From: Thermodesulfobacteriota bacterium
GTDB taxonomy: Bacteria > Desulfobacterota > Deferrisomatia > Deferrisomatales > JACRMM01
Direction: 5' to 3'
DNA: 64,000 nt
NCBI GenBank assembly: GCA_040756475.1
Contig: JBFLZB010000003.1
Span: 3,965 to 67,964, forward strand
Shown one piece after another: positions 36,116 through 57,636 of this stretch (positions are counted from its first letter, which is position 1; the number at the start of each line of letters is the position of its first letter). The position numbers were made by a program, and so were the translations under genes. The notes beneath the pieces were generated by a model. It did no database searches and was not told the origin of the DNA. It saw nothing but the letters and a program-made list of their open reading frames with translations.

Positions 36116-37621
36116 CTATCCGCCCCCCTTGGCCGAGGGCAGCTTCGAGACGAGCCGCAGCGACACCGTGAGCCCTTCGAGCTGGTAATGGGGCCGCAGG
36201 TAGAACTTGGAGGTGTAGTAGCCGGGGTTGCCCTCCACCTCCTCCACCACCACCTCGGCGGACGCCAGGGGCTTCATGGCCTTGGTCTCCTCGCTGGAGT
36301 GGGCGGGGTCCCCGTCCACGTACTGGAGGATCCAGTCCTGGAGCCAGCGCTGCATCTCCTCGCGCTCCTTGAACGACCCGATCTTGTCCCGCACGATGCA
36401 CTTCAAGTAGTGGGCAAACCGGCAGCTCGCGAAGAGATAGGGGAAGCGCGCCGCCAGGTTGGCGTTGGCCGTGGCGTCGGGGTCGCTGTACTCCGCGGGC
36501 TTCTGGAGGGACTGGGCGCCGATGAACGCGGCGAAGTCGGTGTTCTTCTTGTGCACCAGGGGCATGAAGCCGTTCTTGGCGAGCTCGGCCTCCCGCCGGT
36601 CGCTGATGGCGATCTCGGTGGGGCACTTCATGTCGACCCCCCCGTCGTCGGTGGGGAAGGTGTGGGTGGGCAGGCCCTCCACCGCCCCCCCCGACTCCAC
36701 GCCCCGGATGCGGGAGCACCAGCCATAGAGCTTGAAGGCGCGGTTGATGTTCACGGCCATGGCGTAGGCCGCGTTGGCCCAGGTGTACTTGTCGTGGCGG
36801 GCGCCCTCCACGTCCTCCTCGAAGTCGAACTCCTCCACGGGGCTGGTGCGGGCGCCGTAGGGCAGCCGCGCCAGGAAGCGCGGCATGGCCAGGCCGATGT
36901 AGCGGGCGTCCTCCGACTCCCGCAGGGAACGCCACGCCGCGTACTCGGGCGTTTGGAAGATCTTGGTGAGGTCCCGCGGGTTGGCGAGCTCCTGCCAGGA
37001 GTCCATCTGCATCACCGTGGGCGCCGCCGCCGTAAGGAAGGGCGCGTGGGATGCCGCCGAGACCTGGGCGATCTGTCCCAGGAGCTCCACGTCGGGCGGG
37101 CTGTGGTCGAAGGTGTAGTCGCCCACGAGGCAGCCGAAGGGCTCGCCCCCGAACTGACCGTACTCCTCCTCGTAGAGCTTCTTGAACAGCGGGCTCTGGT
37201 CCCAGGCCGTGCCCTTGTACTTCTTGAGCGTCTTTCCGAGCTCCTTTTTCGAGATGTTCAGGACGCGGATCTTGAGCATCTCGTCGGTCTCGGTGTTGTT
37301 GACCAGGTAGTGGAGTCCCCGCCACGCACCCTCGAGCTGCTGGAAGTCCTCGTGGTGGAGGATGCGGTTGACCTGCTCGGTGAGCTTGCGGTCGATCTCG
37401 GCGATGATCGCCGAGATCGTCGTCAGGGCATCCTCGGAGACGAGCCGGGTCTGGGCCAGGGCCTGGGCCGCCAGGGTGCGCACCGCAGTTTCCACCGCTT
37501 CCCGGGCCTGGTCGGACTTGGGCTTGAACTCCTTCTGGAGCAGGGACGCAAACTCGCTCACCTCGGCAACCGCAGCGGCAGGCTGGGCTCCCGCCTGGGC
37601 CTGGGTCTTCTCCTCCGCCAT
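36116..37621 (-). CDS. tssC: T6SS contractile sheath large subunit TssC (VipB)
   Basis: FQQLEGAWRGLHYLV....LKIRVLNISKKEL and LPYGA...EEF.FEE motifs. 501 aa. Confidence 0.95.
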   Translation of the reverse strand: MAEEKTQAQAGAQPAAAVAEVSEFASLLQKEFKPKSDQAREAVETAVRTLAAQALAQTRLVSEDALTTISAIIAEIDRKLTEQVNRILHHEDFQQLEGAWRGLHYLVNNTETDEMLKIRVLNISKKELGKTLKKYKGTAWDQSPLFKKLYEEEYGQFGGEPFGCLVGDYTFDHSPPDVELLGQIAQVSAASHAPFLTAAAPTVMQMDSWQELANPRDLTKIFQTPEYAAWRSLRESEDARYIGLAMPRFLARLPYGARTSPVEEFDFEEDVEGARHDKYTWANAAYAMAVNINRAFKLYGWCSRIRGVESGGAVEGLPTHTFPTDDGGVDMKCPTEIAISDRREAELAKNGFMPLVHKKNTDFAAFIGAQSLQKPAEYSDPDATANANLAARFPYLFASCRFAHYLKCIVRDKIGSFKEREEMQRWLQDWILQYVDGDPAHSSEETKAMKPLASAEVVVEEVEGNPGYYTSKFYLRPHYQLEGLTVSLRLVSKLPSAKGGG

Positions 37622-37624
37622 GGC

Positions 37625-38149
37625 TCAGCCCTCCTCTTTCGCAGGTGCGTCGGTCTGGGGCTTGGGCGCCGACGCCAGCGCCTGGAGGAGCGCCGGGTCC
37701 TGGAGAACCTTCGCGATGAGCTCCTCGGCACCGGTCTTCCCGTCCATGTACGTCATGAGGTTCGAGAGCTGGGTGCGGGCCTGGAGGAGCTGGTTCAAGG
37801 CATCGACCTTGCGGGCCACGGCCGCGGGGGAGAAGTCGTCCATGCTCTCGAAAGTGATGTCCACGTTGAGGTTGCCCTCCCCCGTGAGGGTGTTGGGCAC
37901 CTGGAACGCCACCCGGGGCTTCATGGCCTTGAGGCGCTCGTCGAAGTTGTCCACGTCGATCGAGAGCATCTTGCGGTCAGCCACGGGGGCGAGGGGCTCG
38001 GCGGGCTTGCCCGAGAGGTCGGCCAGCACCCCCATGACGAAGGGAAGCTGGATCTTCTTCTCGGCCCCGTAGAGCTCCACGTCGTACTCGATCTGGACCC
38101 GGGGCGCCCGGTTGCGGGCAATGAACTTCTGGCTGCTCATCTTGGCCAA
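37625..38149 (-). CDS. tssB: T6SS contractile sheath small subunit TssB (VipA)
   Basis: SQKFIARNRAPRVQIEYDVELYGAEKKIQLPFVMGVLADLSG. 174 aa. Confidence 0.95.
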   Translation of the reverse strand: MAKMSSQKFIARNRAPRVQIEYDVELYGAEKKIQLPFVMGVLADLSGKPAEPLAPVADRKMLSIDVDNFDERLKAMKPRVAFQVPNTLTGEGNLNVDITFESMDDFSPAAVARKVDALNQLLQARTQLSNLMTYMDGKTGAEELIAKVLQDPALLQALASAPKPQTDAPAKEEG

Positions 38150-38222
38150 GTCTCACCTCCTCCGGCGTGCGTGCCGCGCCTGCCCACTTCGTGTCACCTG
38201 CTTACTTCAAGTGCGTTTCCTG

Positions 38223-39275
38223 TCAACCCCCCTCCTCGGGGCCGCGGATCGTCTCCACCTGTGCGACGCCGTCGGGGGCGAGATCCCGAACGATCTCCAG
38301 GAAGCTCTTGGAGACCAGCCGCTGGGCCCTGCGGAGCAGGAGCGGCACAGGGCTCGAGGGCTCGTGGCGGGCGAAGTACTCGCAGACCCCGTCGAGCGCC
38401 CGCACCACGTCCTCGCGGGTCGCGATCTGGCCAGGAGCGGCAGGGGCGACGGCAGGCCGCGCCGCTGCCCCGGCAGGAGCCCCCTGGACGGCAGATCCCC
38501 CGTCGGCTGCCGCACCCCCGGAAACCCCGCGTTTGCCCAGCGCCTCGTCCACCACCTTGGCCCCGCTTCGCAGGAGTTCCCGAAGCTCCTCCAGGTCCGG
38601 CGCCTGCGCCGCTCCCACCTGCTCGGTCACCAGGGTCTCGATGCCGGTCACGCCCTCCAGGCAGCGTCCGAGTACCCGTGCCGTCTCCTGGAGCGCCCCG
38701 AGCTCGCACCCCCGGAAGGCGGCCTCCACGACGCCGGGGTCCGGGGGTGCTCCCGCCCCCGGCGGAAGCGCCAGGAGGCCGGTGGCCGCCTGCACGTCGC
38801 GCAGGCTGTACCGGCCCAGGGCGGGGGAGGCGACCAGGGGCGCCTCGCGCACCGCGCGCAGGGTCGCCTCGGGATCCCGCAGCGACGCGATACAGTTCAC
38901 GCGCAGGGTCGGATCGTTGTCGTCCTCCGGGTCGAGCCGGGGGTGCAGCCCTTCCCAGTACCGTTCCACGAGCCCTTTCACTAGGTCCAGGCCGTCGGCA
39001 AGGCCCGCCAGGCCGTCGGTACGCGCCAGGGCCCGGGCGAGGTACACTGCCGCTCGCAGGTCCTTGCTCCAGCCCAGGAGAGCCGCCGCCTGCTTCTTCA
39101 CGGCGCTCCAATCCGGCGCCTCGGCGGGAATGACCGTGTCGCCATACTGCTGCTCGGGTTTGCCTTGGGCGGCGCGTTCCAACTCGCCGAAGGCAGGGTC
39201 GTATTCCAGGTTCTCCCCGCAGGGGTCGGCCCCGGGCACCGGCTGCAGCAGCTCCTCCACGTCGATCGCGCTCAT
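38223..39275 (-). CDS. tssA: T6SS protein TssA (ImpA N-terminal domain family)
   Basis: MSAIDVEELLQPVPGADPCGENLEYDPAFGELERA...DW..V......LL..SKDLR ImpA_N pattern. Start at Met30 of the track ORF. Confidence 0.85.
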   Translation of the reverse strand: MSAIDVEELLQPVPGADPCGENLEYDPAFGELERAAQGKPEQQYGDTVIPAEAPDWSAVKKQAAALLGWSKDLRAAVYLARALARTDGLAGLADGLDLVKGLVERYWEGLHPRLDPEDDNDPTLRVNCIASLRDPEATLRAVREAPLVASPALGRYSLRDVQAATGLLALPPGAGAPPDPGVVEAAFRGCELGALQETARVLGRCLEGVTGIETLVTEQVGAAQAPDLEELRELLRSGAKVVDEALGKRGVSGGAAADGGSAVQGAPAGAAARPAVAPAAPGQIATREDVVRALDGVCEYFARHEPSSPVPLLLRRAQRLVSKSFLEIVRDLAPDGVAQVETIRGPEEGG

Positions 39276-39333
39276 GGGAGATCCTCGGCTCCAGGTGTTC
39301 GGTCTTCCCGCGGGGCATCTCCTGCCTGGCTGC

Positions 39334-39362
39334 AAATAGAACACGCGTCCATCAACTGTCAA
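39334..39362 (-). promoter_or_regulatory. candidate sigma-70 promoter of the T6SS operon (TTGACA-N17-CTATTT)
   Basis: The minus strand reads cattGACAgttgatggacgcgtgttCTATTTgca. It has a perfect -35 and a weak -10, about 60 nt upstream of the tssA ATG and just after the upstream terminator hairpin. Confidence 0.3.
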
Positions 39363-42782: not shown

Positions 42783-44183
42783 CTACTCCCCCATGAGGTA
42801 GGCGTGGATGGCGTCGGCGGCGGTGCGGCCGGCGCCCATGGCGAGGATGACCGTGGCGGCGCCGGTCACGACGTCGCCCCCCGCATAGACGCCGGGCATG
42901 GTGGTGGCGCCGGTGGCCTCGTCCACGATGACCGTGCCCCACTTGCTCACCTGGATCTGGGGCGTGGTGCTGGGGATGAGGGGATTGGGGGAGTTGCCGA
43001 TGGCCACGACCACCGTATCCACCTCGAGGACGAACTCCGAGCCCTTCATCTCCCGGGGCTTGCGCCGGCCCGACTCGTCGGGCTCCCCGAGCTCCATGCG
43101 CAGGCACTCCATCCCCCGCACCCAGCCGCCCTCCCCGGGAAGGATGCGCACCGGGTTGGTGAGGAGCTGGAGGTCGACCCCCTCCTCCTCGGCGTGGTGG
43201 ATCTCCTCGGCCCGGGCCGGCATCTCGTCGCGCCCCCGGCGGTACACGATGATCGAGGCCTCGGCCCCGAGGCGAAGCGCGGTGCGCGCCGCGTCCATGG
43301 CCACGTTGCCGCCCCCCAGCACCGCCACGCGCCGGCCCCGGAGGATGGGGGTGTCGTACTCGGGAAAGAGGTAGGCCTTCATGAGGTTGGAGCGGGTCAG
43401 GTACTCGTTGGCCGAGTACACGCCGTTCAAGTTCTCCCCGGGGATCCCCATGAAGCGCGGCAGGCCCGCCCCCGAGCCCACGAAGACCGCGTCGAAGCCG
43501 TCCTCTTCGAAGAGCTCCTGCACGGTGCGGGTCTTGCCGATCACCGCGTTCACCTCGATCTTCACCCCGAGCCGGGTGAGGAAGTCCACCTCTGCCTGGA
43601 CGATGGCCTTGGGGAGACGGAACTCGGGGATGCCGTAGACGAGCACCCCCCCGGGCTTGTGGAGCGCCTCGAAGACGGTGACCTCGTGGCCCTTGCGGAT
43701 GAGGTCCCCCGCCACCGTGAGTCCCGCGGGCCCGGAGCCGATCACCGCGACCTTCTTGCCGGTGCGGGGCGCGAGCTCCGGGAGCGCCGGGTCGCCCTGG
43801 GTGCGCTCCCAGTCCGCGGCAAAGCGCTCCAGGCGCCCGATGGCCACGGGCTGGTCCTTCTTGCCCACCACGCAGTAGATCTCGCACTGGCTCTCCTGCG
43901 GGCAGACCCGGCCGCACACCGCCGGAAGACTGTTCTTTTCCTTGAGGACCTCTGCGGCCCGCCGGAAGTTGCCCTCGCCGATCTGGGCGATGAAGTCGGG
44001 GATGAAGACTTGGACCGGACACCCCTGGCGGCACGCGGGCTTCTTGCACTGGAGGCACCGAGACGCTTCCCGGATGGCCATCTCAGGGGTATAGCCCAGG
44101 GGCACTTCGTCGAAGTTGCGGGCGCGGACCTGGGGCTCTTGCTCGGGCATGGAAACCCGGGGGATGCGCTCCTTCTTGGCCAT
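42783..44183 (-). CDS. nfnB: NADPH-dependent oxidoreductase, GltD/SudA/NfnB family (large subunit of an NfnAB-type pair)
   Basis: RNFDEV..GY....A..EA.RCLQCKKPAC..GCPV Fe-S N-terminus, two dinucleotide folds (VAVIGSGPAGL, VAVLGGGNVAMD). 466 aa. Confidence 0.85.
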   Translation of the reverse strand: MAKKERIPRVSMPEQEPQVRARNFDEVPLGYTPEMAIREASRCLQCKKPACRQGCPVQVFIPDFIAQIGEGNFRRAAEVLKEKNSLPAVCGRVCPQESQCEIYCVVGKKDQPVAIGRLERFAADWERTQGDPALPELAPRTGKKVAVIGSGPAGLTVAGDLIRKGHEVTVFEALHKPGGVLVYGIPEFRLPKAIVQAEVDFLTRLGVKIEVNAVIGKTRTVQELFEEDGFDAVFVGSGAGLPRFMGIPGENLNGVYSANEYLTRSNLMKAYLFPEYDTPILRGRRVAVLGGGNVAMDAARTALRLGAEASIIVYRRGRDEMPARAEEIHHAEEEGVDLQLLTNPVRILPGEGGWVRGMECLRMELGEPDESGRRKPREMKGSEFVLEVDTVVVAIGNSPNPLIPSTTPQIQVSKWGTVIVDEATGATTMPGVYAGGDVVTGAATVILAMGAGRTAADAIHAYLMGE

Positions 44184-44214
44184 CGGGATGAACCTCCGGG
44201 ATGGGGGCCTGGGG

Positions 44215-45066
44215 TCAGGAACAGCGGTGGGCGTGGCCTTCGTGGAAGACCTGCATGGCCCGCTTCTCGTCGTCCAGGTAGATGCGCAGGCGCTGGGTCA
44301 GCTCGTCGAAGTCCACCTGGTGGCCGTCGAACTCGGGGCCGTCCACGCAGGCGAACTTGGTCTCGCCACCCACGCTCACACGGCACGCCCCGCACATGCC
44401 GGTGGCGTCCACCATGATGGGGTTCAGGCTCACCTCGGTCGGCACTGCGTACTCCCGGGTCACCTTGCAGCAGGCCCGCATCATGGGGACAGGACCGATG
44501 GCCATGACGAGGGAGACCCTGTCCTTTCCCTCGCGCTCGATCACCTGGCGCAGCACGTCGGTGACGAAACCGTGGTGGCCGTAGGAGCCGTCGTCGGTGG
44601 CCACCAGGAGCTCGTCGCTCGCCCGGCGCATCTCGTCCTCCAGGATGAGGAGCTCCTGGGTGCGCGCCCCGATGATCGAGACAACCCGGTTGCCGGCGTC
44701 TCGCAGGGCGCGGGCGATGGGGTGGACGGGCGCCACGCCGATGCCGCCCCCGACGCACACCGTCACCCCCGGAAACTTCTCGATGTGGGTGGGGCGCCCC
44801 AGGGGCCCGGCCAGGTCCAGGAGGCGGCTGCCCACCGGCAGCTCGCCGAGCTCGGTGGTGGTCTTCCCCACCGCCTGGAAGACCAGGGTGAGGGTGCCCG
44901 CCTCGGGATCCTTGTCGGCCACGGTGAGGGGGATGCGTTCCCCCTTCTCGTGGATGCGCAGCATGACGAAGTTGCCCGCCCTGTGCTTCCGGGCGACCTC
45001 GGGCGCCCGCAGCACGAGCCGGTAGACCGTGGGGGCGAGGGTCTGGTTCTCCAGGATCTCGAACAA
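44215..45066 (-). CDS. nfnA: ferredoxin-NADP reductase-like small subunit, PyrK/SudB/NfnA family
   Basis: FEILENQTLAPTVYRLVLRAPEVARK...RIPLTVAD and the C-terminal cluster CGACRV....KFACVDGPEF. I prefer the TTG start at 45066, preceded by an AAAAGGAGGAG SD; the track start at 45102 is the alternative. Confidence 0.8.
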   Translation of the reverse strand: MFEILENQTLAPTVYRLVLRAPEVARKHRAGNFVMLRIHEKGERIPLTVADKDPEAGTLTLVFQAVGKTTTELGELPVGSRLLDLAGPLGRPTHIEKFPGVTVCVGGGIGVAPVHPIARALRDAGNRVVSIIGARTQELLILEDEMRRASDELLVATDDGSYGHHGFVTDVLRQVIEREGKDRVSLVMAIGPVPMMRACCKVTREYAVPTEVSLNPIMVDATGMCGACRVSVGGETKFACVDGPEFDGHQVDFDELTQRLRIYLDDEKRAMQVFHEGHAHRCS

Positions 45067-45238
45067 CGCGTCTCCTCCTTTTGTCGGCAGCCGCCGGAGC
45101 ATATGCCGCCGGGCCGCCGGCCTGTCAAGGAAACCAACCTCGAGAGCTCACCACCAAGACACCGGGACACGAAGGGAATCGGACTTGCGGCGTGGACGAA
45201 GACCGTTCGCGGCGCGGGCGGAGCGCCCTCCACACCCC

Positions 45239-48253: not shown

Positions 48254-48826
48254 TCACACCCTGCGGACTCGGGGTGAGGAAGAGATGGCGACGAGCACCT
48301 CTTCCAGCCTGCGGTGCAGCGCCGCGCCGTCGGTGCCCTTGTTCAGGTAGAACGCCGGGGCCAGCTCGTCGAGCAGGGGGCGCAACGTGGGATCGAGGCG
48401 CCGGCCCGACAGGAAGAGCACTCCAGCGGGCGCAGCCCCGAAGCCCCTCTCCACGGCCCGCAGGGCCACGGCGGCGTGCAGACCGTTGAGACGGGGCATG
48501 AGGAGGTCCAAGATCGCCAAGGAGACGGGGCGCTTCTCGCACAGGGCGGCGGTGGCCTTCTCCACCGCCTCGGCACCGTCCCGGGCGGCAACGACCTCGC
48601 CCGCCAAGCGCCGGGAGCGCAGGGTCTCTTCCAGTGCCTTGAGAAAGAACGCGGAGTCGTCGGCCACCAGGACCCGGCGAAACCGCACCAGTCCCTCCCG
48701 GCCCGCGGACTTGGCCAGGGGCATCCCGCACTGGACGCAGCGAACCTCCCGGGTGCCGCTCTCCAGGTCCACGTCATAGGTCTCGACGCTCTCGCCACAC
48801 GCCGCGCAGGCCGCTCGCTCACCCAT
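48254..48826 (-). CDS. single-domain response regulator (REC) with N-terminal CxxC...CxxC zinc ribbon
   Basis: MGERAACAACGESV...VRCVQCG, then RRVLVADDSAFFLKAL...LAILDLLMPRLNG (phospho-acceptor Asp region)...K. The ATG overlaps the polA stop (ATGA). Confidence 0.75.
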   Translation of the reverse strand: MGERAACAACGESVETYDVDLESGTREVRCVQCGMPLAKSAGREGLVRFRRVLVADDSAFFLKALEETLRSRRLAGEVVAARDGAEAVEKATAALCEKRPVSLAILDLLMPRLNGLHAAVALRAVERGFGAAPAGVLFLSGRRLDPTLRPLLDELAPAFYLNKGTDGAALHRRLEEVLVAISSSPRVRRV

Positions 48827-51414
48827 CAGTGCGCCTCGTACCAGTTGCGCCCGGCGCCTGCCTCCACCACCAGCGGCACCCGCAGCGATCGCGCCCCCTC
48901 CATGGCCTCCACCACCCGGGTGCGGACGGCATCCACCTGGGGGGCCGCCACCTCGAAGACGAGCTCGTCGTGCACCTGCAAGATCAAGCGGGCATCGAGG
49001 CCCGCCTGCCCCAGTGCCCGGCTCGCCCCCACCATGGCCGTCTTGATCAGGTCCGCCGCGGTCCCCTGGAGGGGGGTATTGATCGCCATCCGCTCCCCGA
49101 ACTCCCGCTGCGCGCGGTTTCGGGACGTGAGCTCGGGGATGGGGCGGCGCCGGCCGAAGAGCGTCTCGGCGTACCCCCGGGACCGTGCCCCCTCCACGAG
49201 CTCCGCGAGAAACGCCTGCACGGACGGGAACTGTCGGAAGTAGGCCTGGATCATCTTCCGGGCGGCCTCCCGGGTAATGCCGAGCTGACGGGCCAGGCCA
49301 AACGGGCTCATGCCGTAGAGGATGCCGAAGTTCACGGTCTTGGCTTCCCGGCGCATCCGGGCGTCCACCGCCGCGAGCGGCACGCTGAAGATCCGGCTCG
49401 CGGTCTCCGCGTGGACGTCGCGGCCTGCCCGGAAGACCTCGACCAGGGCCGGATCGCCGCTCAGGTGGGCCAAGATGCGAAGCTCCACCTGGGAGTAATC
49501 GGCCGAGAGGAGCCGGCAACCCTCCGCCGCCACGAAGGCCTCCCTGATGCGGCGCCCCTCTTCGCCCCGTACGGGGATGTTCTGGAGATTGGGGGTGCTC
49601 GAGCTCAGGCGCCCGGTGGCGGCCACCGTCTGGTGGAACCGGGCATGGATGCGGCCCGTGGCCGGATCGACGAGACCGGGCAGCACGTCGATGAAGGAGT
49701 TCTTGAGCTTCGAGAGGCTGCGGTGCTCCAGCACCACCCGGGGCAGGGGGTGGTCCAGGGCGAGCTCCTCCAGGACCGAGGCGTCGGTGGAGTAGCCCGT
49801 GGCGGTCTTCTTGCCCACCGGGAGCTTGAGCTTCTCGAAGAGGATCTCCCCGAGCTGGCGGGGGCTCTGGGGGTTGAACTCCTCGCCGGCCAGGGCGAAG
49901 AGCTTGCGCTCCAGCTCGGCGAGCCGCCCGGCGTACTCTCTACTGAGCTGCGCCAACGCCCTCGAGTCCACCCGTACACCGCGGGTCTCCATGCCCGCCA
50001 GCACGGGGATCAGGGGATTTTCGATCTCCCGATAGAGCGCTAGGAGCCCCGCCTCGGCAAGCTCCGCCTCCAGCCGCACAGCCAGCGCAAGGACCGTGGC
50101 CGCCCTGCCCGGGGTCCGCTCGGCGGGTTCGGGGGACGGACCCGCCCCTTCCCCAGCCAGGCCCCGCTCCCGGGCCAGGTCTTCCAGGGGGTAGGCCCGC
50201 CGGCCGGGAGAGAGCAGGTACGCCGCCACCTCCGTGTCGAGCCGGATCCCCTCGAGCGCCTCCCCCGCCCGCCCAAGCGCGACACAGGCCGCCTGGAGCC
50301 CGTGGCCCACTACCGGCACGGCCGGATCGGCGACCAGTCTCCCCCAGGGCTCCGGCAGCCCCCCGGGGCCCGGGGCCGGCACGGCCGCCTTCTCGGCTCC
50401 CCAGGCCAGCCCCCAGGGCTCGCCCGCCCCACCCGGGACCACCGCGACCCAGGCAACGGGTCGCCCGTGCCCCGGCCCTCCGGTCGCCGGCGTCGGTCCC
50501 ACCGCGTTCCCCTCTGGGGGCGGCCGAGGGGGCTGCTCCGCAGCCACCTCTCCAGGGGAACTTTCCCCCTCCAGGCCCAGGTCGCGCAGGAAGCGGTGGA
50601 ACTCCAGTTCCCGCAGGAGCGCCGCGAGACGCGGGCGGTCCTGGGACCCGGGGCGCAGACCCTCCGGTTGGACCTCCAGGGGCACCGCGGTGTCGATGGT
50701 CACCAGGGGCCGGTTCTCGAGGGCGCGCTGCCCGTGCTCCCGCAGGGCCTCGCCTCGCTTGCCCCGGATTTCCGACGCCCGTGCCACGATCTCCTCGAGG
50801 CTTCCGTACTCCTCGAGGAGCTTCGCGGCGGTCTTGGGCCCGATGCCGGGTACACCCGGGATGTTGTCCACCGCGTCCCCCGTGAGGGCCAGCACGTCCA
50901 CCACCCGGTCGGGACCCACCCCAAACTTCTCCGCCACCTCCCCGGGACCGGTCACCTTGTCGCGCATGGTATCCAGCAGCCGGATGCGGGGCCCCACGAG
51001 CTGGCAGAAGTCCTTGTCCCCCGTGACCAGCGTCACCTCCTTCCCGGCATCGGCCAGGCGGCGGGCCAGGGTGCCGAGCACGTCGTCGGCCTCCACTCCC
51101 GGCACGGTGAGCACCGGTATGCCCAGGGCGGCCAGGGCCCTGTGGACGTAGGGGATCTGGATCAGCAGGTCGTCCGGGGTCGCCTCGCGATTGGCCTTGT
51201 ACTCGGGGAACAGGGCGTGGCGCGCCGTGGGCCCAGGGGGGTCGAAGACCACGGCGAACCCCTCGGGCGCCTGCTCGCGCAATACCCGAAAGACCATGGA
51301 GAGGAAGCCGAAGACCACGTGGGTGGGGAGCCCCCCCGCGGTGCGAAACCCTTGAAGGGCGTGGTAGGCGCGGTAGAGGAGGTTGGTGCCGTCGATCAGG
51401 TAGTACCCCCCCAC
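48826..51414 (-). CDS. polA: DNA polymerase I
   Basis: YLIDGTNLLYRAYHA 5'-nuclease N-terminus, C-terminal RRxAKxxNFGxxYG and QVHDELVFE polymerase motifs. Proposed GTG start at 51414 (Val94 of the track ORF), 5 nt after the upstream gene's stop. Confidence 0.9.
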   Translation of the reverse strand: MGGYYLIDGTNLLYRAYHALQGFRTAGGLPTHVVFGFLSMVFRVLREQAPEGFAVVFDPPGPTARHALFPEYKANREATPDDLLIQIPYVHRALAALGIPVLTVPGVEADDVLGTLARRLADAGKEVTLVTGDKDFCQLVGPRIRLLDTMRDKVTGPGEVAEKFGVGPDRVVDVLALTGDAVDNIPGVPGIGPKTAAKLLEEYGSLEEIVARASEIRGKRGEALREHGQRALENRPLVTIDTAVPLEVQPEGLRPGSQDRPRLAALLRELEFHRFLRDLGLEGESSPGEVAAEQPPRPPPEGNAVGPTPATGGPGHGRPVAWVAVVPGGAGEPWGLAWGAEKAAVPAPGPGGLPEPWGRLVADPAVPVVGHGLQAACVALGRAGEALEGIRLDTEVAAYLLSPGRRAYPLEDLARERGLAGEGAGPSPEPAERTPGRAATVLALAVRLEAELAEAGLLALYREIENPLIPVLAGMETRGVRVDSRALAQLSREYAGRLAELERKLFALAGEEFNPQSPRQLGEILFEKLKLPVGKKTATGYSTDASVLEELALDHPLPRVVLEHRSLSKLKNSFIDVLPGLVDPATGRIHARFHQTVAATGRLSSSTPNLQNIPVRGEEGRRIREAFVAAEGCRLLSADYSQVELRILAHLSGDPALVEVFRAGRDVHAETASRIFSVPLAAVDARMRREAKTVNFGILYGMSPFGLARQLGITREAARKMIQAYFRQFPSVQAFLAELVEGARSRGYAETLFGRRRPIPELTSRNRAQREFGERMAINTPLQGTAADLIKTAMVGASRALGQAGLDARLILQVHDELVFEVAAPQVDAVRTRVVEAMEGARSLRVPLVVEAGAGRNWYEAH

Positions 51415-51418
51415 GGGC

Positions 51419-51826
51419 TCACTCCACTCGGCAGACGGCCGTGAGGAGCAGAGCCCCGGCCGCGTCGCGCACCTCCACCGTCCAGTCCCCCCGGTGCTCC
51501 GGCAGGACGGTCTTGGTGCTCCAGGTCCGCCACGTGGGACCCTGCACCGCCAGGGGAATCGAAGCCACCTCGCGGCCGTCGTAGATCCAGACGTGGCGCA
51601 CCTCGGAGGCCCCCTGGACCCCCGCCACCTGGGTAAAAAAGGCCAGCGTTCCCACGTCGGCCGGAAAGACCTGGGCTTCCCCCACGGGCTCACGCGCCTC
51701 GATCCCCCGGGCGAAGGCGTGGCGGACCACCGAAATCTCCGCCCGCGCCGCTGCCGGGGCGAGCAGGCAGCCTAGAAGGAGGACGGCCGAGAGGAGCCCT
51801 CGGGCGGGACCACGTCTGCTCTTCAT
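51419..51826 (-). CDS. secreted small protein, DUF2914-like
   Basis: Signal peptide MKSRRGPARGLLSAVLLLGCLLAPAAARA, then ...VRHVWIYDGREV....L.V.GPTWRTWSTK.....RGDWTVEV.DA.G.LL. The family assignment is from memory of the pattern. Confidence 0.6.
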   Translation of the reverse strand: MKSRRGPARGLLSAVLLLGCLLAPAAARAEISVVRHAFARGIEAREPVGEAQVFPADVGTLAFFTQVAGVQGASEVRHVWIYDGREVASIPLAVQGPTWRTWSTKTVLPEHRGDWTVEVRDAAGALLLTAVCRVE

Positions 51827-51870
51827 TGGGTTCCTCCTCCGCGGGCGGCGGCGGGCCGCCGGGGTTTGGT

Positions 51871-51960
51871 TCGATCCGTATCGGGATCGGGATCGGGATC
51901 CGTTTGGGTTCTGGATCGATACCGATACCGATAGCGATAGCGATCCCGATTCTAATCGGG
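51871..51960. repeat. hexamer-phased tandem array (15 units: TCGATC CGTATC GGGATC x3 ... ATACCG x2 ATAGCG x2 ATCCCG ...), GATC-rich
   Basis: Read directly. Six GATC sites within about 75 nt. The array occupies most of the 142-nt gap between hemB and the DUF2914-like gene. Confidence 0.9.
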
Positions 51961-51968
51961 GACCCGGG

Positions 51969-52943
51969 TCACCCCTGCAGGACCCTGGCGGCCTCGGGGG
52001 CGAAGTAGGTGAGGATCATGTCCGCACCCGCCCGTTTGATGGAGAGCAGGCTCTCCATCATGAGCCCCTTGCCGTCACCCCAGCCCAAGCGCTCCATGGC
52101 CTTCACCATGGCGTACTCCCCGCTCACGTTGTAGGCGGCGGTGGGCATGGCAAACGTGTCCTTGACCCGGCGGATGACGTCCAGGTACGGGAGCGCGGGT
52201 TTCACCATCACGATGTCGGCCCCCTCCGCCACGTCGAGCTCCACCTCTCGGATGGCCTCGTCGCCGTTGGCGGGGTCCATCTGGTAGGAGCGCCGGTCGC
52301 CGAACTGGGGCGGCGACTCGGCGGCGTCCCGGAAGGGCCCGTAAAAGGTGCTCGCAAACTTGGCCGCGTAGGCCATGATGGGGATCTGTCCGAAGCCCTC
52401 GGCATCGAGCGCGGCCCGCAGTGCCCCCACCCGGCCGTCCATCATGTCGGAGGGGGCGACCAGGTCGGCCCCCGCCCGGGCGTGGGAGACCGCTTCCCGG
52501 GCCAGGAGCTCCAGGGTGGGGTCGTTGGCCACGTCGCCCCCCTCGATGACCCCGCAGTGGCCGTGGTCGGTGTACTCGCACAGGCACACATCGGTCATGA
52601 CGCAGAGCTCGGGCAGGGCGTCCTTGAGCGCGCGCACCGCCCGCTGCACGATCCCGTCGTCGGCCCAGGCGCCCGACCCCACGGCGTCCTTGTGGTCGGG
52701 AATGCCAAACAGGATCACCGAGGGCACCCCCAGCCCCCAGGCGGCCCGGGCCTCCCGTACCGCCTCGTCCACCGAGAGCTGGAACTGCCCCGGCATGCTC
52801 CCGATGGGATTGCGGATGCCCGTGCCCTCCCGGACGAAGAGCGGGTAGATGAAGTCCGAAGGCGAGAGCGCCGTCTCCCGCACCATGCGGCGCAGGGTCT
52901 CGTTCTTGCGCAAGCGGCGCATGCGAAGGGTGGGGAACGTCAT
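51969..52943 (-). CDS. hemB: porphobilinogen synthase (5-aminolevulinate dehydratase)
   Basis: [19 protein letters not shown]...DFIYPLFV N-terminus, [14 protein letters not shown] metal site and active-site Lys regions ([10 protein letters not shown]). Start at Met32 of the track ORF. Confidence 0.9.
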
Positions 52944-53015
52944 GGGAACCTCGTGGGAACCTCGTGGGTTGGGGGTTGCAGGTTGCGCGTTGGGGGTCGC
53001 GGGTTGTGGGTTGGG
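52944..53015. repeat. 2 x 11-mer (GGGAACCTCGT) abutting the hemB start, followed by 7 heptamers (GGTTGGG GGTTGCA GGTTGCG CGTTGGG GGTCGCG GGTTGTG GGTTGGG)
   Basis: Read directly. On the minus strand each 11-mer reads ACGAGGTTCCC, so the hemB SD-like GAGG is duplicated. Confidence 0.9.
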
Positions 53016-53023
53016 CCTGCGTG

Positions 53024-53058
53024 CCCACTCCGTCACTCGTCAGCACTCACTTTTCACT
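53024..53058. repeat. degenerate heptamer array (CCCACTC CGTCACT CGTCAGC ACTCACT TTTCACT)
   Basis: Read directly. Lies between the fixX stop (53110) and the hemB upstream repeats. Confidence 0.75.
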
Positions 53059-53109
53059 TCTCCCGCAGACTTTCTCCAACATGCAACGCGCCACACACAA
53101 CGTGCCCAT

Positions 53110-53433
53110 CTATCCATAGCGATAACAAATCCCCATCCCCCCCATGGGATAGCGCCAGGTGATGTTGGCGTGGGGGCAGACCAGGCGGCAGGTGCCGCAC
53201 TCCAGGCAGTTCTCGAAGCGGATCGTGAGGCGCCCCTCCTCGTCGCTCCAGCGGTAGGTCTCGGCGGGGCAGGTGCGCACGCACTCCTTGCCCGCGCACC
53301 CTGGGCAGCGGGAGGGATCGGAGACGCCCAGGTGGGAGACCGCGTCGGGCCGGGTCTCGTCCGCGTAGAGGCGCTCTTCCACGGTCAGGGGCTTGCCCGA
53401 CCCCCGGATGCCCCCCGGTTCCCCTCTCGTCAC
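53110..53433 (-). CDS. fixX: ferredoxin-like protein FixX
   Basis: ...CAGKECVRTCPAETYRW...RFENCLECGTCRLVCP...ITWRYPMGGMGICYRYG is the typical FixX 4Fe-4S ferredoxin-like C-terminus. The GTG start at 53433 is my best guess; there is no in-frame ATG. Confidence 0.75.
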   Translation of the reverse strand: MTRGEPGGIRGSGKPLTVEERLYADETRPDAVSHLGVSDPSRCPGCAGKECVRTCPAETYRWSDEEGRLTIRFENCLECGTCRLVCPHANITWRYPMGGMGICYRYG

Positions 53434-53443
53434 GTGCCGCTCC

Positions 53444-54820
53444 TCACCAGTTCTTCGCCAGGTATTCCAGGATCCGGTCGCTCTTCCCGTAGCCGAGCAC
53501 CCGCAGGGCGTTTCGCAGCTGGAGCGCGGTGGCGGCAAAGGGGAGGATGCCCACCCGGCGCTGGAAGAGCTCCCAGAGCTCCCCGCCCCGCTCGGAGCGG
53601 GGACCGCCCCCCACCCGCAGCAGGCTCTCGGCGGCAGAGGACAGGGCCTCGGGCCAGCGGGCGAGCACGTGGGGGTTGCCCTCGAGGAAGCGGGGCCAGT
53701 CCCGGTAGTGCTCCATGTCCTTGAGGACGAAGCTGTCCTCCAGGTACCGCCGGTAGCAGGAGAGGGTCGAGGCGGTGAAGTCCCCCGCGGCGTGAGCTGC
53801 CAGAGCCGCCCTTCCCGCCATCACGCCGGAGGCCATGGCGTAGTTCGATCCCTCGTGGTGGGGCGAGGTGCTCACGAGCCCCGCCGCGTCCCCCGCCAGG
53901 AGGAGCCCGTCCTTGTAGAGGATCGGGAGGGCGTCGTATCCGGTCTCGGGGATGAGGTGCGCGCCATACTCCAGGAGCTCCGCCCCCTCCACCAGGGGGG
54001 CTACGGCCGGGTGGGCCTTGAACCGGTCCAGGAGCTCCACGGGGCTCGCCGCCTGCTGCGCCAGGTCGGACGCGTAGACCACCACCCCCACCGAGAGGCT
54101 TTCCCGGTTCGTGTAGACGAACCCCGAGCCCCGCAGCCCCCCCGTGGCCTCCCCCAGGTACTCCCATGCGCTTCCCTGGTCGCCCCGAACCCCAAACCGC
54201 TCCTCGATCTTCTCCCGGGGAAGGCCCAGCACCTCCTTCACGCCCAGGGCCGCACGCCGGCTCGAAAGGGGCGGCCGAAGCCCCTCCGCCTCGGCCAGGA
54301 GGGAGCTGGCACCGTCGGCGACGACCACCACGGGGGCCTTGAGCCGCCCGCCTTCGGCGGACTCCCCCTCGGGCATGCGGACCTCCACCCCCACCACCCG
54401 GCCGCTGTCGTCCTTGAGGGTGCGGTCCACCACGACCCCGCTCACCACCTCGACCCCTTCGGCCTCGGCCCGGGAGGCAAACCAGCGGTCGAAGCGCGCC
54501 CGCAGGACGGTAAAGCTGTGGTTGTGGGGAGCTCGGTCCCAGGCCGCGGTGCGAAACGAGAGGGCCGTTTCCGCCTCGCCCGTGAGGACCGAGAGCCCCT
54601 TCTTCGCCACGTGGCGCTCCAGGGGGGCTCCCTCGGTCTGGAAGTCGGGCACGAGCTCGGCGAGGACGTCGGTGTAGAGCACCCCGCCCATCAGGCTCTT
54701 CGCGCCCGGGTAGGGCCCACGCTCCAGGAGTCCCACCCTGAGGCCCCCCCGGGCCATGGTGAGGGCCGCGCTCACCCCTGCCGGGCCCGCGCCGATGACG
54801 ATCGCGTCGAAGTCGCTCAC
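53444..54820 (-). CDS. fixC: FAD-dependent electron-transfer-flavoprotein:quinone oxidoreductase-like protein FixC
   Basis: V(GTG)SDFDAIVIGAGPAGVSAALTMARGGLRVGLLERG FAD fold and LLAGDAAG. The GTG overlaps the hemY stop (GTGA). Confidence 0.85.
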   Translation of the reverse strand: MSDFDAIVIGAGPAGVSAALTMARGGLRVGLLERGPYPGAKSLMGGVLYTDVLAELVPDFQTEGAPLERHVAKKGLSVLTGEAETALSFRTAAWDRAPHNHSFTVLRARFDRWFASRAEAEGVEVVSGVVVDRTLKDDSGRVVGVEVRMPEGESAEGGRLKAPVVVVADGASSLLAEAEGLRPPLSSRRAALGVKEVLGLPREKIEERFGVRGDQGSAWEYLGEATGGLRGSGFVYTNRESLSVGVVVYASDLAQQAASPVELLDRFKAHPAVAPLVEGAELLEYGAHLIPETGYDALPILYKDGLLLAGDAAGLVSTSPHHEGSNYAMASGVMAGRAALAAHAAGDFTASTLSCYRRYLEDSFVLKDMEHYRDWPRFLEGNPHVLARWPEALSSAAESLLRVGGGPRSERGGELWELFQRRVGILPFAATALQLRNALRVLGYGKSDRILEYLAKNW

Positions 54821-56256
54821 CCCGAGACCCCTTCCCCGCCGGCCGCCGCCGCCGTGCCGGGGGCCGCCAGGAGATCCGCCACCCGGGGCCCCAGGGCCGT
54901 CCCGTGTGCGGTGCAGTCGTTGATGCCGATGCCGTAGTAGGCGTTGCCCCCGAGAAAGAGGCCTCCCAGGGCCGCCACCCGGCCCTCGATCTCCTGGAGG
55001 CGGGCCGCGTGCCCCACCACGTACTGGGGGATCGCCCGGGCCCAGCGCACCACCCTGGCGAAGCAGGGCTCGGCGCGAATGCCGAGCGTCCAGGCGAGCT
55101 CGTCCTTCACCACTGCCAGGAGGTCCTCGTCGGAGAGGTTCACCAGCTCGGGGTTTCGCGCCCCCCCCACGATCTGGGTGAGGAGCACGCGGCCCTCGGG
55201 GGCGCGCCCCGCGAAGATGGAGGAGCTCCACAACGACCCCAGGATGCGGCGGCCCTCGGCCGAGGGGATGAGGAACCCGAAGCCGTCCAGGGGATGGGCC
55301 ACGTCCTCCCGGCGAAAGCCGGTGCACACCACCGCCGCGGGTACGTAGGGAACGGCGTAGAGGCGCTCCGCCAGGGCGGCGTCGTGCCCTCGCAGGAGTC
55401 TCGCGGCGTCGTAGGCGGGTGTGGCGAGTATCACCGCGTCGGCCCTCAACTCGCCGCCCGCCGTTCGCACCCTCCACCCGCCCCCGGGGTGCCGCTCCAG
55501 GGCCTCGGCTTCCGCGCCGGGGTGAAGCGACCCATCGGGCAGGCTCCGGGCGAGGGTCTCGATCAGCTCTCCCGCGCCCTCCTCCAGGCTCCAGAGCACG
55601 CCGCCGGGCCCCGCGCTCTGGGGACCCTGTACACCCATGGCCTTGGCCATCTTCTGCATGGCCAGCATGCCCTTCAGGAGCCCCCCGAACTGGGCCTCGA
55701 TCTGGGCCACCTTGGGAAAGCAGCTCCGAAGGCTCATCACGTTGGGGTCGCCCGCGTAGATGCCCGCGCTCATGGGGTCGATGAGCTTCTCCAGGGCCTC
55801 GTCCCCCAGGCGCCGGCGCACGAACGCCGCCACCGTCTCGTCCTCCCGGGCGTCCCCCTGGGGAAGCAGGAACTCCGCCGCGAGCCGTAGCTTCCCCCGG
55901 ATGGAGAGCAGGTCCGAGAGGAGGAAGCTCACCGGATCCTCGGGGAGCTGCTTGAGCTCACCCCCGGTGAAGACGAACCGCTTGCGGGCCTTGTCGTTGG
56001 ACTTGAGAAGTCGCGCCTCCGCGCCCAGGCGCCGGACCAGGGCCAGGGTGGAGGGCTTGTTGTCGAGGAACCCGTTGGGACCGTGCTCGCACAGGAAACC
56101 CTCGTCCCGGGTCGAGCGGATCTTTCCCCCCAGGTGAGGGTCCCGCTCCAGCAAGGTGAGCTCCGGGGTCGGCCCGCGCCGCCCGGTCTCGTCGAGCACC
56201 GCGCGCGCCGCCGCGAGCCCCGAGAGCCCTCCTCCCACGATCACCACGCGTCTCAT
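54817..56256 (-). CDS. hemY: protoporphyrinogen/coproporphyrinogen oxidase, HemY (FAD amine-oxidase) family
   Basis: MRRVVIVGGGLSGLAAA...LLERDPHLGGKIRS....GF..E.GPN.F and a C-terminal GGNAYYGIGINDC. Start at Met12 of the track ORF. Confidence 0.85.
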   Translation of the reverse strand: MRRVVIVGGGLSGLAAARAVLDETGRRGPTPELTLLERDPHLGGKIRSTRDEGFLCEHGPNGFLDNKPSTLALVRRLGAEARLLKSNDKARKRFVFTGGELKQLPEDPVSFLLSDLLSIRGKLRLAAEFLLPQGDAREDETVAAFVRRRLGDEALEKLIDPMSAGIYAGDPNVMSLRSCFPKVAQIEAQFGGLLKGMLAMQKMAKAMGVQGPQSAGPGGVLWSLEEGAGELIETLARSLPDGSLHPGAEAEALERHPGGGWRVRTAGGELRADAVILATPAYDAARLLRGHDAALAERLYAVPYVPAAVVCTGFRREDVAHPLDGFGFLIPSAEGRRILGSLWSSSIFAGRAPEGRVLLTQIVGGARNPELVNLSDEDLLAVVKDELAWTLGIRAEPCFARVVRWARAIPQYVVGHAARLQEIEGRVAALGGLFLGGNAYYGIGINDCTAHGTALGPRVADLLAAPGTAAAAGGEGVSG

Positions 56257-56359
56257 GTGCGCTCCGTCCTGGGCAACAGCGAGCGGCAAACATACGCGGC
56301 GCCCCCGCCCGGGTCAAGACGGCCTCACCGCCGACCGACGTCATCTCCGGCCCGCGGAT

Positions 56360-56409
56360 GGGAGCCGGCGAGACCGTCAGCAGCCCCGCGGTCCGGGTCG
56401 CCGGCTCCC
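56360..56409. other. long inverted repeat: GGGAGCCGGCGA ... TCGCCGGCTCCC (12 bp perfect) with inner GACCG/CGGTC pairs
   Basis: Read directly. Lies in the divergent region between hemY (start 56256, minus strand) and the PAS gene (plus strand). Confidence 0.8.
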
Positions 56410-56652
56410 ATCCCCCCCGGTTACGATTCGGAACCCGGTCCGGTACGCAGGGAGCGCTTCGGACGCGTTCTCGTCCTCCGGTGGGGAGCGGACGGGGCGA
56501 AGCGACGGGAGTGGGTGGTATGGAACCTGCATAGTCGGGGGCGTGCGGCATCTCGCCGGGGGAAGGCACGGAGGCCCTCTCAACCCTCGAAGTCCGCCCC
56601 ACCGGGCACCGGCGCGGGACGTGCCGATGCCGGGAAGGAAGGGTCTGGATTC

Positions 56653-57345
56653 GTGGACGCGGCCAGAACCGGAACACGCGCACGCGCCAAGCGATGCAGC
56701 GAAACCGAGTCCTCGCCAGAGCGTGGTCCTGAATCCCTCGGCGCCATCCTTCGCGCCTGGACCGCCACCCTGGACGCGATCGAGGACTTCATCTCCGTCC
56801 ACGACTGGGACTTCCGGATCGTGCGCGCCAACCGTGCCTTGGCGCGGCACCTGGGGTGCGAGCCGGCCCACCTGGTCGGCCAGCGCTGTCACTGGGTCTT
56901 CCACGGCACCGAGGAGCCCTGGCCCGGGTGCCCCCACGACAGGGCCCGCCGAACCGAGACCACCGCCACGGAGGAGATCCTCGATTCCTGCCTGGGCGTG
57001 CCCCTCCAGGTCCGGTGCTCGCCCTACTGCGACGAAGCCGGCCGGGCCGTGGGGACCGTCCACGTGGCGCGGGACATCACACAAGAGAGGCGGCGCGACG
57101 CCGAGCGCGAGGCCCTCATCGCCCGCCTCCAGGAGGCCCTCGCCCAGGCAAAGATCCTCGGAGGGCTCCTCCCGATTTGCTCCTCGTGCAAGAGGATTCG
57201 CGACGACCAGGGGTACTGGAACCAGATCGAGGCTTACATCGGGGAACGCTCCCACGCCGAGTTCACCCACGGCATCTGCCCCGAGTGCGCGCAGGAGCTC
57301 TACCCCCAGTGGGTCGGCCTGCGCAGGAGCCCCTCGCCCCGGTAA
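56653..57345 (+). CDS. PAS-domain protein with C-terminal Cys4 module (LPICSSCKRIRDD...THGICPEC)
   Basis: DAIEDFISVHDWDFRIVRANRALARHLG... PAS core, a coiled linker, then CxxC-x32-CxxC. The start is uncertain: GTG at 56653 is the first plausible in-frame start outside the hemY antisense region. Confidence 0.65.
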   Translation: MDAARTGTRARAKRCSETESSPERGPESLGAILRAWTATLDAIEDFISVHDWDFRIVRANRALARHLGCEPAHLVGQRCHWVFHGTEEPWPGCPHDRARRTETTATEEILDSCLGVPLQVRCSPYCDEAGRAVGTVHVARDITQERRRDAEREALIARLQEALAQAKILGGLLPICSSCKRIRDDQGYWNQIEAYIGERSHAEFTHGICPECAQELYPQWVGLRRSPSPR

Positions 57346-57551: not shown

Positions 57552-57636
57552 GCGAGAGTGGCGGAACTGGCAGACGCACTGGACTTAGGATCCAGCGGGT
57601 TACACCGTGGGGGTTCGAGTCCCCCCTCTCGCACCA
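57552..57636 (+). tRNA. tRNA-Leu (anticodon TAG), CCA encoded
   Basis: Hand-folded. Acceptor GCGAGAG/CTCTCGC, anticodon stem CTGGA/TCCAG with loop CTTAGGA, long variable arm, T arm GGGGG-TTCGAGT-CCCCC. Confidence 0.9.

Follow-up and report, generated by a model that had tools for sequence, protein, structure and literature searches.

A hemY-fixC-fixX-hemB unit of a Deferrisomatales-type anaerobe and a possible quinone-linked electron outlet for a HemY-type porphyrinogen oxidase

Organization of the hemY-fixC-fixX-hemB locus

The DNA analysed here is a stretch of 64,000 nucleotides (nt) from contig JBFLZB010000003.1 of a Thermodesulfobacteriota bacterium, referred to below as the window. Its minus strand harbours the haem-synthesis unit hemY-fixC-fixX-hemB of a Deferrisomatales-type anaerobe, in which the gene of a HemY-family porphyrinogen oxidase is coupled to the genes of an EtfC/EtfX-type electron-transfer module, FixC and FixX (together FixCX; Table 1). 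The near relatives of the window FixC belong to the Deferrisomatales, with 73% identity to the homologue of Deferrisoma camini, and Deferrisoma is an anaerobe that respires Fe(III) or S0 (PMC4707226). An initial annotation, made from the sequence alone, had suggested that FixCX could act as an oxygen-independent electron outlet of HemY. The identities of HemY, FixC, FixX and HemB that it assigned, their order on the minus strand, the GTGA overlap between hemY and fixC and the 10-nt gap between fixC and fixX were all confirmed.

At the junction of the first two genes the plus strand reads TCAC, which is GTGA in the coding direction, so that the TGA stop codon of hemY (54819-54817) overlaps the GTG start codon of fixC (54820-54818) and the two codons share bases. 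The same GTG start is carried by the public entry of an identical FixC (P0001, 458 amino acids (aa), 100% identity). The 10-nt spacer between the fixC stop and the fixX start contains a GGAG sequence. Since the upstream neighbour of hemY, a gene for a PAS protein, lies divergently on the plus strand, the unit begins with hemY. The promoter-like site in front of it is the sole match of its kind across positions 51500-57000 (mean in shuffled sequence, 0.1), and the sole terminator-like hairpin detected (53152-53133) is weak and lies inside the 3' end of fixX.

The span given in the initial annotation (53110-56256) holds hemY, fixC and fixX only; the conserved block, however, runs on past fixX through hemB, the DUF2914 gene and polA. 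The listed open reading frame (ORF) of polA is probably over-extended at its 5' end, where it overlaps the real DUF2914 gene, because the 5'-3' exonuclease domain begins only at residue 98. Two sets of repeats occupy the spacer between fixX and hemB, three 11-nt units in tandem (52933-52965; units GGGAACNTC-A/G-T), which reach into the start of hemB, and two G-rich direct repeats of 21 nt (52968-53009). Both sets may be regulatory.

Table 1. Features of the hemY unit and of its surroundings in the window
Feature	Position	Strand	Description
hemY	54817-56256	minus	ATG start; 479 aa; HemY-family porphyrinogen oxidase (PgoX/CgoX type)
GTGA overlap of hemY stop and fixC start	54817-54820	minus	plus strand TCAC
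fixC-like	53444-54820	minus	458 aa; EtfC/FixC-type flavoprotein binding flavin adenine dinucleotide (FAD); ETF-QO family; C-terminal extension of about 25 aa
fixX-like	53110-53433	minus	GTG start; 107 aa; EtfX/FixX-type ferredoxin; eight Cys
fixX-hemB spacer	52944-53109		166 nt; short tandem repeats and G-rich direct repeats
hemB	51969-52943	minus	324 aa; porphobilinogen synthase; ALAD 506 bits; NF006762 515 bits (cutoff 297)
Promoter-like site	56289-56317	minus	TTGACC-17-TATGTT, sigma-70-like; about 33 nt 5' of the hemY ATG
DUF2914 gene	51419-51826	minus	DUF2914 69.6 bits; same place in L001-L004
polA	48826-51693	minus	DNA_pol_A 524 bits; after the DUF2914 gene in L001-L004
Aldehyde:ferredoxin oxidoreductase (AOR) gene	17051-18802		anaerobe context
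NfnAB-like pair	42783-45102		anaerobe context

FixC and FixX form an EtfC/EtfX-type module

Comparison with solved structures revealed that the window FixC matches chain C of the EtfABCX complex of Thermotoga maritima (7KOE) with 301 bits over residues 3-430. The AlphaFold (AF2) model of FixC, which has a mean confidence (pLDDT) of 91.7, superimposes on this chain in Foldseek with an E-value of 4e-51, TM-scores of 0.90 and 0.94 and a root-mean-square deviation (rmsd) of 1.8 Å. Moreover, the quinone-binding domain PF21162 (ETFQO_UQ-bd) is recognized with 33 bits against a cutoff of 27.7. The best NCBIfam models, NF007450 (320 bits) and NF007542 (306 bits), stay below their curated cutoffs of 466 and 610, which distant members of the clade described below also fail to reach; owing to these high cutoffs both are taken as narrow subfamily models. 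FixX aligns with chain D of 7KOE across its full length (90.5 bits) and exceeds the cutoff of PF05187 (Fer4_ETF_QO; 39.9 bits against 24). Its eight cysteines, which make up two [4Fe-4S] motifs, are aligned in all clade members, and FixC and FixX have kept every feature by which EtfC and EtfX bind their cofactors.

FixCX is thus a genuine EtfC/EtfX-type module. By homology, FixC is predicted to bind FAD, to associate with the membrane and to contain a quinone site, and FixX to be a small ferredoxin that carries two [4Fe-4S] clusters. Pfam and NCBIfam matches of the two proteins were restricted to the ETF-QO, geranylgeranyl-reductase and ferredoxin families, and neither shows homology to the oxygen-independent enzymes HemG, HemJ or CgoN. 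A role of FixC as a geranylgeranyl reductase or MenJ-like enzyme was considered and rejected, the respective scores being 37-107 bits as against 320 bits and the TM-score 0.71 as against 0.90.

The ordinary FixX proteins encoded at L008, L011, L099 and about 40 other canonical loci have no first cluster motif, and their cysteines number only about five. Judged from this cysteine count, such proteins probably bind one [4Fe-4S] cluster and not two.

HemY is a full-length member of its family

The window HemY matches the family model of protoporphyrinogen oxidase (TIGR00562) with 322.3 bits over residues 1-454, against a cutoff of 97.85, and the Pfam family Amino_oxidase with 189 bits. A dinucleotide-binding motif (GGGLSG) is located at the N-terminus, and the FAD-binding motif reads VVIVGGGLSGLAAA. 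The closest solved relative is the protoporphyrinogen oxidase of Myxococcus xanthus (2IVD, 304 bits), followed by the Bacillus subtilis enzyme (3I6D, 242 bits). By score, HemY thus lies nearer to the PgoX of M. xanthus than to the CgoX of B. subtilis, which does not fix whether the substrate is proto- or coproporphyrinogen.

Outside the Deferrisomatales, the closest HemY proteins include those that are themselves neighbours of FixCX (56% identity at locus L007, 55% on the contig of P0123 and 52% at L160); those of Geobacter and other Desulfuromonadales rank slightly lower, with 49-52% identity to the window HemY.

The clade of FixCX-associated HemYs contains a third subgroup (P0244, P0245, P0247, P0248, P0249, P0252 and P0256), the contigs of which carry no known haem-type FixC. 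As a lead only, the organisms with an ahbD-hemE-hemH operon described below may be the source of these HemYs, which would then be unlinked to fixCX.

A narrow clade of haem-linked FixC proteins

Searches with the window FixC returned a block of proteins of 454-480 aa with at least 60% identity; the ordinary FixCs, which measure about 435 aa, come next, with identities of no more than 51%. Members of the haem-linked clade measure 454-516 aa and have in common a C-terminal extension that is absent from ordinary FixC; in the model of the window protein it contributes an extra helix (residues 446-457) of low confidence. Neighbour-joining trees group these longer proteins apart from ordinary FixC, and the clade was recovered in 128 of 200 bootstraps. 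A search of 1.84 billion representatives, clustered at 50% identity, gave one haem-type FixC (731 bits, reaching the end of the profile), and the next match (549 bits) was an ordinary FixC. The haem-linked clade is narrow. A protein of 460 aa with 49% identity (P0127, locus L161) was placed outside it, as it has no haem genes nearby and is accompanied by a canonical FixX with the motif YPRGG.

A second signature is located near the C-terminus of FixX, where the window protein displays the motif YPMGG (about 53125-53139). The variable position of this YP-X-GG motif is Met or Pro at 15 of 15 clade loci, as compared with Arg or Lys in 83 of the 96 other FixX proteins in which the motif could be located. 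The exchange may mark a changed partner interface.

For comparison of gene neighbourhoods, a control set of 145 ordinary FixC loci was drawn from the matches listed in a genome-contig scan and a metagenome-contig scan. The former, run with the haem-type FixC profile, gave among the matches listed nearly exclusively ordinary ETF-linked loci (ETF, electron-transfer flavoprotein) and one Deferrisomatales locus; the latter, for which the profile was built from subclades 2 and 3 (see below), gave three haem-type loci among 68 and no new locus of subclade 2. Genes for ETF adjoin fixCX at 96 of the 145 control loci and at none of the 15 clade loci, where none occurs within 8-10 kb. Conversely, haem genes are found next to fixCX at 13 clade loci, eight of which have hemY, and at no control locus; the two remaining clade loci are contigs that end right after fixX. 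Over nine non-redundant lineages, the p value of Fisher's test is 9e-15 when any haem gene is counted and 5e-9 when only hemY is, relatedness being left out of account. The adjacency exceeds chance, since it recurs in other genomes and is absent from all 145 control loci.

Linkage of fixCX to haem genes in four arrangements

Four arrangements with haem genes can be distinguished, namely hemY-fixCX-hemB, fixCX-hemY, fixCX-[insert]-marR-hemY and fixCX-ahbD-like-hemE-hemH, and the loci range from 54 to 71% GC. In subclade 1 the order hemY-fixC-fixX-hemB-DUF2914-polA is found in the window, in D. camini (L001), at L094 and in two metagenome-assembled genomes (MAGs) of 57% GC (L002 and L003), and the linkage is kept down to a FixC identity of 60-64% (MAGs among L001-L003 and L094). 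Two further loci (L004 and L010) start at fixC, and hemB follows fixX at all subclade-1 loci. The hemY-fixC junction varies within the subclade: in the two MAGs the TAG of hemY abuts the ATG of fixC, with a GGAGG inside the end of hemY, and in D. camini the two genes are 178 nt apart. Any meaning of the adjacency to hemB or polA was rejected, as it is confined to this syntenic subclade.

At the D. camini locus L001 (contig JAFN01000001.1) fixC and fixX are split by a DDE_3 transposase gene of opposite orientation (11715-12752 of L001), and at L094 about 500 nt separate the two genes at the same place.

Subclade 3, represented by L007/L092 and L093, displays the order fixC-fixX-hemY. Here hemY is the sole conserved neighbour, the other neighbouring genes being unrelated (PAS kinase, large unknown protein, TPR protein, C25 peptidase). 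A further NCBI contig carries FixC MDT8396309, and a HemY accession, MDT839631- (last digit missing), fits a position two entries later. In subclade 4 (P0123/P0124 group), locus L160 has fixC-fixX followed by a mobile insert of 3.5 kb with MarR-like, TumE and Fic genes and then by marR-hemY; its HemY scores 336 bits against TIGR00562. FixC P0123 and HemY P0250 lie on a shared contig of 62.8 kb. In total, 20 pairs of HemY and FixC matches come from contigs of equal size, seven of which are shorter than 6.2 kb.

The neighbourhood of HemY and FixCX is thus found in at least three FixC subclades, with varied gene order and among otherwise unrelated genes. The initial annotation had named confinement of the adjacency to a single genome as the finding that would overturn its proposal, and no such confinement is seen. 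That the linkage survives different gene orders and genomic backgrounds is a stronger argument than the Fisher counts.

In subclade 2 (L005, L006 and L009) fixC-fixX lead an operon that continues with an AhbD-like radical SAM/SPASM gene, hemE and hemH. The AhbD-like proteins score 433-448 bits against TIGR04545 (AhbD haem b synthase), which is below the cutoff of 500 but makes it the best family by 120-140 bits over NirJ2 or TIGR04053. Judged from its gene content, this operon may encode a fully oxygen-independent haem pathway of the coproporphyrin type. It spans 8001-12943 in L005, 8001-13815 in L006 and 7097-12161 in L009, and multihaem cytochrome and pilin genes adjoin it.

Apart from the clade, the metagenome contigs L095-L111, L113-L117 and L124-L125 form a coherent group of fixCX loci with neither ETF nor haem genes nearby; the pair at L099, for instance, has VWA, TPR/CAP and peptidase S58 genes nearby.

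Proposed electron transfer from HemY to quinone

HemY-type enzymes take six electrons from the porphyrinogen on their FAD, and oxidases of this type also occur in strict anaerobes. In vitro they require O2 (PMC13564367). However, CgoX of Staphylococcus aureus supports anaerobic haem synthesis in vivo and is needed for it, and the authors of that study leave the anaerobic acceptor to be identified (PMC6620371). HemG and CgoN, the oxygen-independent counterpart of CgoX, deliver the same six electrons to quinones (PMC13564367, PMC10965808). In EtfABCX, the high-potential electrons travel from the ET-FAD by way of EtfX's pair of [4Fe-4S] clusters to the FAD in EtfC, which is membrane-associated, and from there to bound menaquinone (PMC10734219).

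As a tentative interpretation, to which we give a little less than an even chance, FixCX may constitute the oxygen-independent electron outlet of HemY to quinone, with HemY taking the place of ETF as the donor. The FAD of HemY would oxidise the porphyrinogen (proto- or coproporphyrinogen), and the reduced flavin would pass single electrons to the iron-sulfur clusters of FixX instead of O2. From FixX the electrons would reach the FAD of FixC, which in turn would reduce menaquinone in the membrane. HemY, FixC and FixX would in this way act as an oxygen-independent porphyrinogen:quinone oxidoreductase, and with such a complex a strict anaerobe that needs large amounts of haem for its cytochromes could make use of a HemY-type enzyme. 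Established here are the identities of the genes, their coupling, the conserved linkage, the distinctness of the clade as against ETF-linked FixC and the structural match to EtfC/EtfX. What we infer is that HemY and FixCX touch each other, which way the electrons flow and that quinone accepts them; HemY as the donor is favoured because it represents the most economical fit to the anatomy of the locus and the comparative data.

Several observations weigh against this interpretation. The alignment of FixCX-linked and Geobacter-type HemYs revealed no insertion or deletion that separates the two, four match lists contained no HemY-FixC fusion protein, and among the searches made no haem-type FixC from Geobacter and its relatives was found, despite their similar HemYs. 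FixCX is therefore not the general anaerobic solution of HemY. The clade received a moderate bootstrap value of 64%. Subclade 1 shares a syntenic background that runs hemB-DUF2914-polA-zapA-rny, so that this subclade taken alone could reflect inherited gene order. In addition, no hemY is located within 8 kb of fixCX at the three subclade-2 loci, even at an E-value of 0.01, and the FixCs of these loci share 58-66% identity with those of subclade 3, which is linked to hemY, so that FixC probably does the same job whether hemY adjoins it or not. Finally, 49 of the 145 ordinary FixC loci likewise lack adjacent ETF genes. The proposal taken over from the initial annotation is thus strengthened by the homology to EtfC and EtfX and by the ETF-less clade, and weakened by the Geobacter-type HemYs for which no haem-type FixC was found and by the hemY-less subclade 2.

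Alternative functions of FixCX

The hemY-less operon with ahbD-like, hemE and hemH keeps alive the idea that FixCX acts alone or serves another haem enzyme. If FixCX itself were an oxygen-independent porphyrinogen dehydrogenase, oxidation would take place at the FAD of FixC, perhaps in the quinone pocket of the EtfC type, the electrons would leave via the FixX clusters or to quinone, and a hemY beside it would encode an isoenzyme for aerobic or micro-oxic conditions. With FixCX in the position of CgoX, the subclade-2 operon would cover the path from uroporphyrinogen III to haem free of oxygen, in line with the lack of hemY within 8 kb at three loci of 54-71% GC. FixC is, moreover, related to geranylgeranyl reductases, which accept large hydrophobic substrates, and CgoN provides the precedent of an FAD protein unrelated to HemY that performs the same chemistry with quinone. 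However, isoenzymes that differ in their need for oxygen are not usually encoded by translationally coupled genes, whereas hemY and fixC overlap or abut, and the linkage to hemY has outlived at least one rearrangement, hemY lying upstream in one subclade and downstream in two. The FixC model, which fits EtfC at 1.8 Å, reveals no new domain and adds only the short C-terminal helix of low confidence, and the HemYs of the third subgroup could belong to the subclade-2 organisms. We consider a dehydrogenase function of FixCX, the main alternative, unlikely. The same operon would also agree with FixCX as the partner in electron transfer of AhbD-like or HemN-type radical-SAM enzymes of haem synthesis, or as a general electron hub of the anaerobic pathway; FixCX would then take the electron of each oxidative decarboxylation to quinone, and HemY would be one client among several or none. 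In subclade 2 the AhbD-like gene directly follows fixX (433-448 bits for TIGR04545, the next family reaching about 300), a two-cluster ferredoxin would be a natural match for SPASM auxiliary clusters, and we know of no identified electron acceptor of the HemN and AhbD decarboxylases. Yet no radical-SAM haem gene is located near fixCX in the window or in subclades 1, 3 and 4, subclade 3 conserves hemY alone as a neighbour, and the AhbD-like scores remain under the curated cutoff; such a partnership appears very unlikely.

As ETF-less FixCX pairs also exist outside the clade, one group of them with unrelated neighbours, a distant ETF partner has to be weighed too. The adjacency to haem genes would then be incidental and FixCX would serve an ETF encoded elsewhere, either as ETF:quinone oxidoreductase or within a bifurcating FixABCX. 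The retention of every EtfC/EtfX cofactor-binding feature and the background synteny of subclade 1 are compatible with this assumption. It is nevertheless quite unlikely, since haem genes adjoin fixCX in four arrangements and backgrounds but at no locus of the control set, the clade has signatures of its own, including the loss of the basic residue in the YP(R/K)GG motif of FixX, and ETF genes are missing from the 8-10 kb around every clade locus. In a broader form, which we regard as rather doubtful, the FixC/FixX pair would be a dedicated and so far unrecognised component of anaerobic haem synthesis, either a fifth kind of porphyrinogen dehydrogenase or an electron sink for both HemY and a radical-SAM decarboxylase. 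With HemY as the donor, as proposed above, the pair would be one part of a three-protein porphyrinogen oxidoreductase.

Relation to known systems

FixC and FixX are homologous to EtfC and EtfX of the EtfABCX/FixABCX complex of T. maritima (7KOE), and the proposed wire corresponds to its high-potential branch. In contrast to that complex, the present system lacks EtfA and EtfB, has haem genes as neighbours, an extra C-terminal segment in FixC and Met or Pro in the FixX motif, and implies no bifurcation. As no etfA or etfB gene occurs in the window or at the clade loci, the system is not a FixABCX/EtfABCX. With porcine ETF-QO (2GMH) FixCX shares the logic of FAD, [4Fe-4S] cluster and quinone as well as the fold (102 bits; TM-score 0.70); ETF-QO, however, is a single polypeptide with one cluster that is fed by ETF, whereas here two genes, two clusters and no linkage to ETF are found.

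The net reaction proposed here, the transfer of six electrons from porphyrinogen to the quinone pool without O2, resembles that of HemG/PgdH1, HemJ/PgdH2 and CgoN (PMC13564367, PMC10965808). HemG is flavodoxin-like, HemJ a membrane protein and CgoN a DUF1444 FAD protein, none of them homologous to FixC or FixX, and unlike in these systems an ordinary oxidase of the HemY type would do the catalysis, with two separate proteins as the wire to quinone. Compared with the HemY-type PgoX of M. xanthus (2IVD) and the CgoX enzymes of B. subtilis (3I6D) and S. aureus, the window HemY is a full-length family member; the characterised PgoX and CgoX enzymes act alone with O2, and none has been reported with a FixCX partner.

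A full-text search of the accessible literature found no paper that joins HemY or protoporphyrinogen oxidase with FixC, FixX, fixCX or EtfCX, in agreement with the initial annotation, which knew of no description of the coupling. In a review of haem biosynthesis from August 2026, FixC and ETF go unmentioned, HemG, HemJ and CgoN are the only oxygen-independent solutions named, and the inventory of the pathway is regarded as essentially complete (PMC13564367). What is new is the combination of parts for a quinone-linked, oxygen-independent oxidation of porphyrinogen, for which the genomic link is solid and the mechanism a proposal. If it holds true, the HemY-FixCX unit would, for some lineages at least, be a concrete and cloneable candidate for the missing acceptor and would tie haem synthesis to the quinone pool by an undescribed route. 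It would also be, to our knowledge, the first case of an EtfC/EtfX module that serves a donor other than ETF. The fixCX-ahbD-hemE-hemH operon, for its part, bears on haem synthesis before the advent of oxygen and on the very large cytochrome content of metal reducers. Since the clade is small, the direct reach of the finding is limited, and its value lies in the suggested mechanism and its testability.

Other features of the window

The AOR gene and the NfnAB-like pair, from which the initial annotation had concluded an anaerobic lifestyle, are both present. Its statement that fixAB genes are lacking also holds: eight EtfA/EtfB queries from four loci detected no ETF gene in the window and gave only short chance matches, the best with an E-value of 0.005 over 37 residues. 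No haem gene other than those of the hemY-fixCX-hemB unit was found in the window. The remaining genes include polysaccharide genes, asnB, tgt, a sigma-54 activator, tRNA-Leu, clpP, clpX and lon. A type VI secretion cluster on the minus strand (about 28462-39362) comprises ClpV, TssG, TssF, ImpE, Hcp, VipB, VipA and ImpA.

The PAS protein encoded divergently from hemY (about 56700-57345, plus strand) ends in a tail rich in Cys and His (CSSCKRIRDDQGYW...HGICPEC), and its gene adjoins the tRNA-Leu gene (57552-57636). The protein may serve the hemY unit as a sensor of redox state or of metals.

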